Counted from the first letter of the stretch, positions 59,071 through 61,585 are shown. The stretch: 64,000 bases of DNA from Chlamydiales bacterium (GCA_051647685.1 JBOFEG010000001.1:5961-69960), one strand, 5' to 3'. Translations and numbers: made by a program. The notes: a model not told the origin generated them from the letters alone.

Positions 59071-59853
59071 TTAGTCTGACTCTTTACGTATATATGCATA
59101 ACGCCCACGGAAGGGTGGTTTTTTAGGAAAATCTAGTCTAGCTATCGTAGCATTGAGTGTATATTCAAAACCTAAATCAGCACTCGCTTTTGTAACAACA
59201 AACTCCCATAATGCAAGTATGTCTTTTAAAACTTCTCCTTGATAATAGATAGCGAGATAAAAGATGTGGTCTTCTTCTGTAACATCAACTATTACAAATC
59301 TCATTTCTGGTGTAACGACCCCAAGCAGGGCTCGTTGAACCGCTATCAATGCATAAGCAATAAGTGGTTCTGTTTCAAAAGAAATACCTTTTGCTCTAGA
59401 GGGAATTATAATGTTCCCATTTTCTGTATCATGTACAACGCCTATAGTTGTTGGGGTTATTTCTTCTGTTACTGGGTGGATGAAATTTCCTATAGTTCTC
59501 TCAAAATGGATGAATTTTCTCGAAAGAAAGTGATCGATTGTATGTTTTATTTCACCTTCTTTTCTAAGATAAGCATATCTGCCAGGAAATGGAATAAGAG
59601 CAGGGTAATCGAGCCGTTCGATACTTTCATCTGGGAAAAAATTACCCGGCAATGCTGCCGTAGTTTCTGTACAAGCACAATTCCAAAGTTCAACGGTATC
59701 TTCAGAAACTTCTCCATCATAGTAGAAGCGAATATAAAATAATGATCTGTCTTTACTTGTGCTAATGATAACTGCTCGTAATTCTGGCGTTATCGTTTCC
59801 AATAAAGCTCCTTGGATAGACAGGAGGGCATCATCAATTAAAAACATGTTCAT
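59071..59853 (-). CDS. Putative immunity protein made of two tandem ~100-aa homologous domains
   Basis: Start set at ATG 59853-59851 (MNMFLIDDALL...), 2 nt after the frameshift-corrected toxin stop. The track start (59955) adds 34 residues that are just the out-of-frame toxin 3' end. Repeat 1 is LLSIQGALLETITPELRAVIISTSKDRSLFYIRFYYDGEVSEDTVELWN...ERLDYPALIPFPGRYAYLRKEGE. Repeat 2 is LIAVQRALLGVVTPEMRFVIVDVTEEDHIFYLAIYYQGEVLKDILALWE...ARLDFPKKPPFRGRYAYIRKESD. Confidence 0.65.
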   Translation of the reverse strand: MNMFLIDDALLSIQGALLETITPELRAVIISTSKDRSLFYIRFYYDGEVSEDTVELWNCACTETTAALPGNFFPDESIERLDYPALIPFPGRYAYLRKEGEIKHTIDHFLSRKFIHFERTIGNFIHPVTEEITPTTIGVVHDTENGNIIIPSRAKGISFETEPLIAYALIAVQRALLGVVTPEMRFVIVDVTEEDHIFYLAIYYQGEVLKDILALWEFVVTKASADLGFEYTLNATIARLDFPKKPPFRGRYAYIRKESD

Positions 59854-59855
59854 AT

Positions 59856-61585
59856 TCACTCTTTTGGAAAAGTAGGAACAATATGTATGCCATCTTTTGC
59901 ATAATGAATTTTCCCCAGGTAGTTCGTGTTTTAATGCCTGTTTTTCGATTAACATGATACCCTATAAACTCTTTAAAATTTATTATTTCTTTATATCCAG
60001 GAGTTCCTGGCGTGATTTTACTATCTTTTATTCCTGTCCCTGCATGATTTTTTGCAAGTATTTCTGGATGACTATGTTCAAAAATACTTTTGTTGAGTTC
60101 TGCATTATAATTATTATGTCCTATTACATGCTTACCTTGCTTTCCTGAAGCTACTTTTAAATTTGCCTCTTTTACTATTTGCGCTCTTATAGCTGCTCTT
60201 TCTTTTGCAGTTATTTTGATCAACTGTTTATTAGCTTCACTGAATTTCATAGCCTCATAGGTCATGACGCTATTGGCTTTTTTTAAATTTTGGTAGTATC
60301 GAAGTCCCTTTTTTATTCCCATTCCCGCAAAAATATCTACGCCATATTTTCCTATGATCCGTCCAGATAAAGCTCCTTTTTCTCTATCATCTAATGTGTC
60401 CCAATTTTCTATTAACTGTTGAAGTTCCGGAACTAGTTGTCCGAGGTATTCTTTTGGAGTATGAGTTCTTACAAATTCTATGCAATCTTGTGTTGCCTGT
60501 ACTATTTCGAAAGAAACATGGATAGGATCTTGAGCAAAAGCCCAGAGTCCTTGTCCAAATCCATACATGGAGGAAAGAAGGGACGGAATGTATTCAATAG
60601 CAGCTTCCGTTCCACCCTGGAGAATTCCATCTGTTAATCCCAAAGAAAATGTGAGAAAACTGACACAGTCGTTTGGAATAGAAGTTGGTTTGATGCCAGA
60701 TTGGATGTAATCTTGCAGCGATTCATCAAAATTGCCTAACTCAAAATAAGCAGTAGCTCTTTCGAAATAAGCTTGCTTATTTGTGGGATCTTTTTTAATA
60801 GTTTCATCAAGGATCTCTAAGGCTGATCCAAATTGATTAGTGTTACTATATGCTTTCCCAAGATCTATAGAAAAACTGAAAGCCGTTCCCCATGTACTTT
60901 GTATTAAGTTCTCTACCTCTTTATTATTTATAATTTTCTTAATACATTCGATGGCATCTAAATTTTTTCCAAGCTGTAGAGCTAGTAATCCTTTATCTGC
61001 AAAATAGTATGGAGATTTGTATGTATTCATTTCGTAAAGATTTTCAAATTTTTCTTGTACGTACTTCCATATATTATGTAACTTATTTCGAACTATAAAT
61101 ATTTCTTGTCGAGAGAAATTTTTGATGTGTGTGGGTTGTTCAAACCACCAAAAAATGTAATCAAATCCTTTCCAAAAATCTAAATATAAGGGCTCCGGTG
61201 GAAGCCATCCTTCAATATAAAGACTGGATCCAAATAGAGACTTATATTTAGGATGTAAAGATTGGGAATAAGCTTCCTCGACTAATGTAGAAACAGAGTA
61301 AGCTAGCCCTTCTCTTTCACCGTGCAGCCCTGGAATAAATTCAAATCGTTCTTCCTCCCATTCATCATAATAGTCATCATCCCAATAATAATCGCCAATC
61401 TCATCTGAATCCTCACCTGTATCTACTGTAGCAAGAAAACTACTACACCTATTTTCTTTGCATGTCTCGCGCAATGGAAATGCCGGACATGTATCTCCTT
61501 GCACTTCTTTTATGAAAAGAAAAAAAGATAAATATAGAAAAATTCGAATAGGAATGCTCAAAGGTTGAGAGTGCATAATTTTCAT
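59856..61585 (-). CDS. Secreted TPR protein with a C-terminal polymorphic-toxin domain (Ntox50-like); needs a -1 frame change at 59915-59909
   Basis: Signal peptide (IRIFLYLSFFLFIKEVQG), an acidic DYYWDDDYYDEWEEE tract, and TPR units (QAYFERATAYFELGNFDESLQDYIQS). The C-terminus reads GKQGKHVIGHNNYNAELNKS...GTG...INFKEFIGYHVNRKTGIKTRTTWG. The annotated frame ends in ...GKFIMQKMAYILFLLFQKSEYEHVFN (stop 59834). The -1 frame entered at GGGAAAA reads GKIHYAKDGIHIVPTFPKE (stop 59858-59856), which fits the toxin-50 type ending (IHYxKxGxHIVP) as I remember it. Confidence 0.7.

Follow-up and report, generated by a model that had tools for sequence, protein, structure and literature searches.

Polymorphic toxins with cognate immunity proteins belong to the usual armament of bacteria in competition with others. 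In obligate intracellular bacteria such toxins were described as rare, and chlamydiae were listed among the phyla bearing the toxin domain Ntox50, for which an immunity protein was not yet known (Zhang et al. 2012). The question whether chlamydiae use such weapons, and against whom, is raised by a locus in a stretch of 64,000 nucleotides from a Chlamydiales bacterium (GCA_051647685.1, JBOFEG010000001.1:5961-69960; this whole stretch is called the window in the following). At positions 59,071 to 61,585 a gene for a putatively secreted toxin is directly followed on the minus strand by the gene for its candidate immunity protein. Our analysis indicates that this locus is likely one member of a Chlamydiota-specific polymorphic toxin family. 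Here an Ntox50 RNase is paired with a MafI2-type inhibitor, and the pair would play a role in conflicts between chlamydiae. The assignment of the DNA to a chlamydial genome is in line with the GspE protein encoded in the window, which is 61-64% identical to proteins of Simkaniaceae and Rhabdochlamydiaceae.

The toxin tip and its reading frame

Two open reading frames (ORFs) form the module, and the first of them ends differently in the sequence as it stands and in a frame restored at a short run of A:

59834..61585, minus strand: toxin ORF as sequenced, 583 amino acids (aa), with 24 unrelated residues after ...TTWGK
59856..61585, minus strand: restored toxin coding sequence, 576 aa plus TGA, the A-run at 59909-59912 being taken as A5 (a -1 shift)
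59859..60151, minus strand: Ntox50 RNase domain (Pfam PF15542), residues 479-571 of the restored protein, cut by the frameshift at 59909
59071..59853, minus strand: immunity ORF, 260 aa without a signal peptide (261 codons including the stop), start ATG located 2 nucleotides (nt) past the restored toxin stop

In the frame as sequenced the toxin ORF ends with ...TTWGKFIMQKMAYILFLLFQKSEYEHVFN, while the -1 frame from the A-run leads to the C-terminus ...TTWGKIHYAKDGIHIVPTFPKE and a whole protein of 576 aa. The stop codon of the latter is the TGA at 59856-59858, which is followed by 2 bases and then by the immunity ATG at 59853. The 583-aa ORF, the corrected stop and the 2-nt spacing given in a preliminary description of this DNA were all confirmed. 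For the downstream gene the start stood as described, whereas its length of 261 counts codons including the stop and the protein has 260 aa. On comparative grounds the restored frame is the ancestral one, because the proteins P0001 (92% identical) and P0002 (51% identical) both end with ...WGKIHYAKDGIHIVPT(L/F)P(R/K)E and the DNA of the close relative L001 is in frame, reading GGGGAAAAATCC where the window has GGGGAAAATTC.

The tip of the toxin is an Ntox50 RNase domain with a match far beyond chance. The restored protein was aligned to the Pfam model PF15542 over residues 479-571 and model positions 2-92 of 92 with an E-value (E) of 6.4e-21 and 75.4 bits, the cut-off of this family being 22.2 bits. 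The proposal that the C-terminal ~100 aa represent Ntox50 has thus been borne out over the full model, and the profile hidden Markov model (HMM) search suggested for this domain did return a toxin family. The ORF as sequenced covers just positions 1-89 of 103 in our own Ntox50 HMM. A sequence search of the PDB with the window domain found MafB2 (8hhj_B, 1.5e-7) and the C-terminal domain (CTD) of YxiD (9v8i_B, 5e-7). The toxin fold (BECR / RNase A-like) was tested with the intact, 92%-identical orthologue P0001 instead of the frameshifted product of the window. Its AlphaFold2 model, with a predicted local distance difference test score (pLDDT) of 76.8, had YxiD-CTD (9v8i_B) as top Foldseek match with a probability of 1.0, a template modelling (TM) score of 0.74, a root-mean-square deviation (rmsd) of 2.3 A and 39% identity.

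Ntox50 domains share the conserved catalytic pattern H ... H ... HxVP (Zhang et al. 2012). In MafB2 this pattern corresponds to His335, His402 and His409, which are essential for MafB2-CT, an RNase of RNase A-like fold (PMC9970974). The metal-dependent tRNase YxiD-CTD has been crystallised with the exchange H528A (PMC12700104). In our alignment, YxiD His528 lines up with one of the conserved catalytic histidines of Ntox50. The restored frame of the window toxin contains all three catalytic histidines (GKH..., KIH... and GIHIVP), while the ORF as sequenced is without the second and the third.

The immunity protein and its embedded half-toxin

The downstream gene encodes a repeat protein with an unusual architecture:

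59554..59853, minus strand: immunity repeat 1, residues 1-100, MafI2-like, own repeat HMM E 1.8e-39
59080..59376, minus strand: immunity repeat 2, residues 160-258, MafI2-like, own repeat HMM E 1.5e-39
59386..59538, minus strand: embedded C-terminal half of Ntox50, about residues 106-156 (...KFIHFERTIGNFIHPVTEEITPTTIGVVHDTENGNIIIPSRAKG), in frame between the two repeats

Profile searches and structural models support the view that this protein consists of two tandem MafI2-type domains and represents a cognate-type inhibitor, which by homology would neutralise the toxin; MafI2 is the cognate inhibitor of MafB2 (PMC9970974). Its AlphaFold2 model (pLDDT 91.5, predicted TM score (pTM) 0.91) had MafI2 (8hhj_A) as top Foldseek match (E 2.3e-4, probability 1.0, TM 0.71, 99 of 99 residues). 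The MafI2 fold is built of a four-stranded sheet and three helices. When a profile of 32 immunity homologues was compared with the PDB, 8hhj_A was again ranked first, with a weak match (E 0.013) that is aligned over the contact helices. MafI2 was not found by phmmer with the single immunity protein against the PDB, whereas the profile and fold searches did find it, and an NCBIfam scan of the immunity protein gave no match. Precomputed matches to PF26541 (MafI2) exist in 57 of 57 homologues and in the 94%-identical P0121. Hence, the role of immunity partner ascribed to the downstream gene in the preliminary description is in agreement with both its predicted fold and the family matches of its homologues.

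The residues by which such a protein would hold its toxin were read from the MafB2/MafI2 contact table of PMC9970974. Acidic or Thr residues are found in the profile of the homologues at the MafI2 contact positions E55', E58', T62' and E63'. Repeat 1 of the window has E, T and E at the E55', T62' and E63' positions (three of four contact-type residues), and repeat 2 retains acidic/Thr residues at two of these four positions, the other two being changed.

Between the repeats lies half of a toxin. In the window this fragment aligns to model positions 47-92 of Pfam Ntox50 with an E-value of 0.0035, under the cut-off, and in a phmmer search of the PDB it matches residues 99-140 of YxiD-CTD. The same insert is recognised with E 1.1e-10 in the relative P0127, and precomputed PF15542 matches occur in many homologues. 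It was found in 17 of 32 aligned immunity proteins (the window and 16 of the 31 others), always in frame and with constant boundaries (REIxDFKE...HIIPAKP). The mean pairwise identity of the insert is 47-56% vs 58-69% for the repeats. Rhabdochlamydia-type inserts hold both histidines, the window insert just the first. Within the compact AlphaFold2 model the insert forms beta strands with pLDDT >90. Free and N-terminally fused versions of the tip remnant exist at other loci, and short-linker forms such as P0140, which retain just ...IIPARP, look like later deletions of the insert.

The simplest explanation for these forms would be that a cassette of toxin 3' end and immunity gene was duplicated long ago and then fused in frame, the insert being the trace of this event. 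Today it could act as a spacer in the structure, as a pseudo-toxin or as a substrate for recombination. To our knowledge, no second immunity protein that retains half of its toxin in frame is known.

As a separate observation, single ORFs that fuse the C-terminal part of the toxin to the immunity protein have been called in P0171, P0130 and P0150. In P0130 and P0150, HIVPARP... runs to the immunity start without a stop, and the toxin end in P0171 is in the same shifted frame as in the window (...IMQKVAFILYP...).

A polymorphic toxin family in Chlamydiota

The toxin tip sits on a scaffold for which three parts were distinguished:

61496..61585, minus strand: putative Sec-type signal peptide, residues 1-30, cleavage likely after VQG, from sequence features and a hydrophobic 12-mer heuristic
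60698..60865, minus strand: TPR motifs, residues 241-296, Pfam TPR_1, TPR_2 and TPR_16, with Foldseek matches to TPR proteins
60176..60688, minus strand: conserved helical central domain, about residues 300-470, from invariant columns of the toxin alignment, own HMM at 60236-60874

The N-terminus of the window toxin starts with MKIMHSQPLSIPIR, continues with hydrophobic IFLYLSFFLFI and then reaches KEVQG/D, an order that by its sequence features resembles a signal peptide. The hydrophobicity heuristic flags a signal-like N-terminus in the window toxin and in 73 of 115 homologues, the N-termini are alike across the toxin alignment, and the orthologue AlphaFold2 model has an N-terminal helix at residues 3-26. 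In the window toxin the putative signal peptide is followed by an acidic linker. The TPR motifs belong to an N-terminal stretch of about residues 82-300 that is helical throughout, and an NCBIfam scan of the toxin gave weak TPR-type matches alone. The predicted features of the N-terminus and the heuristic thus agree with the Sec signal peptide that had been proposed for this protein, and the proposed TPR scaffold is seen in the Pfam matches. The central domain carries the motifs FSxGL..GG..A..EFIPSLLSS..GLG.GLWAF and IGKYGVDIFAG and ends at the boundary LKKAN..T.E, where the tips diverge. For this domain no match was obtained in Pfam with the restored protein or among PDB folds with Foldseek and the orthologue model.

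A survey of other Chlamydiota, which had been advised in the preliminary description, revealed 138 related toxin proteins and 107 loci in species-representative genomes, all of them in Chlamydiota-type bins of which a few are mislabelled. The family spans Rhabdochlamydiaceae, Parachlamydiaceae, Waddliaceae and Simkaniaceae-like genomes; in the contig scan of the species-representative genomes no locus exceeded 53% identity. Likewise, no record was obtained by exact-sequence look-up of the 260-aa, 294-aa and 583-aa products, which places the window genome outside the collection searched. The shared order consists of a signal-like N-terminus, a variable and often acidic or Cys-rich stretch, TPR-like helices, the helical domain, LK(K/R)AN..T.E and the tip. 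The HMM survey of all loci showed that at about 60 of them scaffold and Ntox50 are directly followed by MafI2-like repeats, which come as one, two, four or six copies. Orphan 3' fragments of Ntox50 precede extra immunity genes at 12 loci. Other tips were found in 17 scaffold genes at 16 loci, where they form four clusters, and the downstream ORFs fall into exactly matching groups. None of three non-Ntox50 tips scanned had a Pfam match. In all, there are at least five tip types, each with its own type of downstream gene.

Signs of imported sequence come from the comparison with L001, which is 97.3% identical to the window at the nucleotide level over 14.1 kb. Between both, the synonymous divergence (dS) of the toxin tip amounts to 0.37 and that of immunity repeat 1 to 0.25, vs 0.025 for the secretin gene. 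In the tip and immunity region dS is 10-15 times the value of the flank, and the ratio of non-synonymous to synonymous divergence (dN/dS) is about 0.25. This pattern fits a recombined cassette under purifying selection.

Judged by its sequence organisation, the family is a genuine polymorphic toxin system, because it combines a shared scaffold, swapped tips, co-varying downstream genes, arrays, orphan tips and signs of recombination. The idea of a polymorphic toxin module, which the preliminary description had developed from the single locus, is therefore sustained by a scaffold with a sharp tip boundary, at least five tip types and matching downstream genes. The accompanying statement that such toxins are not expected in an obligate intracellular lifestyle was overstated, given more than 100 chlamydial loci of the family and the record of Ntox50 in chlamydiae by Zhang et al. 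(2012).

Several observations on single loci may be added. The non-Ntox50 tips are located at L065 and L068-L083 (e.g. L070, 10073-11750), where one common type starts with ...SSNVQYHVMQPKHAW...; the downstream ORF families of these tips encode 79 to ~300 aa and represent candidate new toxin/immunity pairs. At L002 (8001-10861, 2.3-Mb genome; also at L003 and L004) Ntox50 is followed by a 233-aa protein. Its membership in the MafI2-like family was considered and rejected (hhalign probability 0.1); the protein may represent a second immunity family for Ntox50. L037, L043, L047, L060 and L067 have Ntox50 without a MafI2-like gene behind it. Immunity arrays after one toxin gene comprise three tandem two-repeat genes at L030 (11250-13267), four single-repeat ORFs at L016 (11142-12400) and four repeats in one frame at L018 (9146-10555). 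The bins of L004, L007, L009, L011 and L053 are labelled Verrucomicrobia, 'archaeon' or 'Chlamydia trachomatis' and are probably mislabelled or contaminated.

State of the toxin gene in the window strain

The difference between the two toxin frames can be traced to one site:

59909..59912, minus strand: frameshift site, A4 vs A5 in the 97%-identical relative, within G_GGA_AAA on the coding strand

By the contraction of A5 to A4 the last 17 residues are swapped out, including two of the three catalytic histidines. The as-sequenced product is without IHYAKDGIHIVP, a segment in which the counterparts of MafB2 His402 and His409 are located, as is that of the histidine exchanged in the crystallised YxiD. 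Because two of three catalytic histidines are lost, the window toxin as sequenced is predicted to be inactive, with the immunity gene intact.

On balance we lean towards a real frameshift rather than an assembly error. Similar losses are found at other loci of the family: the toxin gene of L085, a syntenic 85%-identical relative, has two in-frame stops (3193-4899), Ntox50 of L012 contains a TGA nonsense codon (6690-6810), L061 has several stops (6880-7012), and at L040 the toxin is frameshifted at an A9 run (10790-10900). At all four toxin-broken loci the immunity gene is intact. Real toxin decay in the window strain is plausible, because L012, L061 and L085 were broken by mutations that cannot be homopolymer errors, and the toxin is probably dead in this strain.

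The rival to such a decay is an assembly error of homopolymer length, according to which the living strain would have an intact, active toxin, and this possibility has to be taken seriously even if we do not prefer it. A4 vs A5 is a difference in homopolymer length, the commonest type of assembly error, and the window and L001 differ over 14.1 kb by three true indels, all of which are homopolymer lengths. The dN/dS of 0.25 for Ntox50 also points to purifying selection until recently. However, the toxin A-run is the sole indel within coding DNA in these 14.1 kb, and inactivation by nonsense codons is undoubted in the syntenic L085 as well as in L012 and L061.

Who is the target?

The following sequence of events is proposed for a member of this family with intact toxin. 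In the cytoplasm of the producer the immunity protein would keep the toxin inactive; judging from the crystal structure of the homologous MafB2/MafI2 pair, an acidic helix, alpha-2, of this protein is expected to plug the RNA-binding groove of the toxin. Sec would then take the toxin to the periplasm, and its release might follow, possibly via the general type II pathway. In cells without the matching immunity protein the toxin would cleave RNA, possibly tRNA. Competing chlamydiae in one host cell appear as the likeliest targets, and the conserved central domain is the obvious candidate for mediating entry into another chlamydial cell.

A different addressee of the same enzyme would be the host. 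In this case the RNase would be an effector secreted to the inclusion lumen or the host cytosol, where it attacks the RNA of the host, of co-resident viruses or of bacteria from other phyla, and the inhibitor would just protect the producer before export, like barstar does with barnase. The organism is an obligate intracellular chlamydia, the toxin combines a predicted signal peptide with a TPR-like region of the kind engaged in protein-protein contacts, and most toxin-like proteins of chlamydiae and other endosymbionts were interpreted as host-directed by Zhang et al. (2012). Yet the host-directed cases of these authors were recognised by absent immunity genes. It is also hard to reconcile a host target with immunity arrays of up to six repeats and orphan toxin tips, with the one-to-one co-variation between tip type and downstream gene type, with the recombination signature of tip and immunity gene between near-identical strains, and with repeated loss of the toxin while immunity was kept. 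We therefore regard a host-directed effector as rather unlikely. Conflict among chlamydiae is preferred over host attack because of the arrays, the orphan tips, the co-variation of tip and immunity gene, and the toxin-dead alleles with intact immunity.

Some points nevertheless weigh against an RNase/inhibitor pair acting between chlamydiae. The presence of an immunity gene alone would equally fit a host-directed secreted RNase with a self-protecting inhibitor. A periplasmic toxin would have to cross the envelope of a second chlamydial cell, and the central domain resembles nothing known in Pfam or the PDB. The PF26541 matches are those of homologues of the window immunity protein, and the profile match to MafI2 is the weak one given above. 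The window insert is diverged and lies below the Pfam cut-off; its dN/dS of 1.68 vs L001 was discarded, because with just six substitutions this value has no weight. Finally, the toxin frameshift shares its homopolymer nature with both other indels to L001.

A more far-reaching interpretation can be offered only tentatively, and as a whole we consider it doubtful. It states that environmental chlamydiae fight in shared host cells by means of a hitherto undescribed, phylum-specific delivery scaffold, on which RNase tips and tips of unknown kind are exchanged, and that their immunity protein has domesticated half of the toxin fold as a working part. The embedded half could then be a pseudo-toxin that shapes or stabilises the inhibitor domains, or it could provide homology for tip recombination.

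The pattern of the family implies that chlamydial strains encounter each other frequently, probably in co-infected protists, and that such encounters select for attack and defence. Handles for the study of superinfection and strain exclusion are thereby provided, namely an RNase domain of small size for which homologous structures exist, an inhibitor with a good model, and naturally occurring alleles that are toxin-dead and immunity-intact.

Type II secretion and ribosomal frameshifting

At lower window coordinates the module faces genes of a secretion system:

51786..59035, plus strand: type II secretion cluster, convergent neighbour, with a 435-aa ORF, secretin, GspE, GspF, and 126-aa and 166-aa pseudopilin-like ORFs

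The naming of this cluster in the preliminary description stands for secretin, GspE and GspF, where Pfam confirms Secretin, T2SSE and T2SSF, but not in the same way for the pseudopilin-like 126-aa and 166-aa ORFs, which gave no Pfam match at E 0.001 or better. With its end at 59035, the pseudopilin-like ORF comes within 35 bp of the immunity ORF, close to the ~36 bp stated there. It might be assumed that this adjacency reflects functional coupling and that the neighbouring gsp cluster has the toxin as its dedicated substrate. The module occupies the same place in L001 and L085, the toxin has a predicted Sec-type signal, and chlamydiae send Sec-dependent proteins out via their type II system. 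However, GspE/GspF genes were found within 10 kb at none of 80 loci from other chlamydial genomes, and they are also absent at L084 and L086, so that among the loci examined the module adjoins type II genes in the window, L001 and L085 alone, all of one genus. The closer homologues P0002 and P0004 sit between genes for Cu-oxidase_4 and a dTDP-sugar isomerase, and P0014 (2.3-Mb genome) is placed elsewhere as well. Moreover, the genes are convergent and therefore not co-transcribed. A dedicated link between toxin and cluster is thus improbable. Comparative genomics does not support a functional tie, and the adjacency appears to be a feature of one genus, because the 80 other loci as well as P0002 and P0004 have no gsp neighbours. 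Passage of the toxin through Sec and then the general type II pathway is possible, with regard to the predicted signal peptide and general knowledge on chlamydiae.

Programmed -1 ribosomal frameshifting at G_GGA_AAA, which could make some full-length toxin from the A4 allele since the site fits X_XXY_YYZ and a -1 slip gives exactly the ancestral C-terminus, is very improbable and was rejected, because no stable stimulatory structure lies downstream (minimum free energy -9.5 kcal/mol, z -0.6 vs shuffled sequences) and the orthologue with A5 is in frame and P0002 is intact, so that frameshifting is not conserved.

Comparison with known systems

The closest known counterpart is MafB2-CT/MafI2 of Neisseria meningitidis B16B6 (PDB 8hhj, PMC9970974). 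It shares with the chlamydial module the Ntox50 tip with three His in the restored frame, the immunity fold with acidic or Thr residues in the contact helices, a Sec signal on the toxin, predicted in the chlamydial case, and the position of the immunity gene directly downstream. It differs in that the chlamydial toxin has the TPR-like region and the chlamydia-specific helical domain in place of the MafB N-terminal domain, and in that MafI2 is a single domain of 108 residues, whereas the chlamydial protein has two with a half-toxin between them. The bearer of the chlamydial module is an obligate intracellular bacterium, and no mafA-like gene was seen. The classification of the window toxin as a MafB protein was rejected, since Pfam found TPR and Ntox50 alone, without DUF1020 / MafB_N, and the neighbours are type II and MORN-repeat genes.

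The nearest solved structure for the toxin domain belongs to the pair YxiD/YxxD of Bacillus subtilis 6633 (PDB 9v8i, PMC12700104), with the 39% identity and the rmsd of 2.3 A mentioned above. YxiD-CTD is neutralised 1:1 by steric occlusion (PMC12700104). In contrast to the chlamydial toxin, YxiD has an LXG N-terminus, is secreted by a type VII system and comes from a Gram-positive bacterium. YxxD was not among the matches of the chlamydial immunity protein or its profile in PDB sequence, profile and fold searches.

Contact-dependent inhibition (CDI; cdiA-CT/cdiI), Rhs and maf islands carry orphan toxin-tip/immunity cassettes. The concept of such cassettes is found in PMC3482391. Toxin 3' fragments in front of extra chlamydial immunity genes are of the same kind, and the insert has the layout of a tip remnant plus immunity. 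Unlike a decaying, untranslated stub, the chlamydial remnant is fused in frame and modelled as well folded. With barnase/barstar the module has in common a secreted RNase with Sec signal, both predicted in the chlamydial case, and an intracellular inhibitor encoded alongside; however, barnase is not polymorphic and has neither swappable tips nor immunity arrays, and barstar is unrelated.

Both domain families of the module are already known in Pfam (PF15542 and PF26541), Ntox50 has been recorded in chlamydiae since 2012, and NCBI names several of the relatives in chlamydial metagenome-assembled genomes 'polymorphic toxin type 50 domain-containing protein'. Our literature search found no paper on the scaffold family of chlamydiae, the diversity of its tips or the immunity protein with its fused insert, and on chlamydial polymorphic toxins it turned up the surveys of the Aravind group alone. 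The locus combines known domain families with a new chlamydia-specific scaffold and an unusual immunity architecture.

Further observations around the module

A scan for promoters and terminators gave nothing above shuffled expectation that is relevant to the module; two weak promoter-like sites are located upstream of the toxin gene at 61711-61743. Across the pseudopilin-like, immunity and toxin genes (57500-61500) the substitution density vs L001 reaches 6-8%, up from about 1%. The comparison with this relative suggests an imported or recombined segment that extends beyond the module. The 126-aa and 166-aa ORFs (58213-59035, plus strand) have prepilin-like hydrophobic N-termini and overlap by 59 bp, and the dN/dS of the 126-aa gene vs L001 is 0.36, the highest of the type II cluster. 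On the other side, divergent from the toxin gene, a MORN_2 repeat protein (Pfam E 1.3e-43) is encoded at 61775-64000 on the plus strand; its gene runs off the window and comprises 860 aa in L001.

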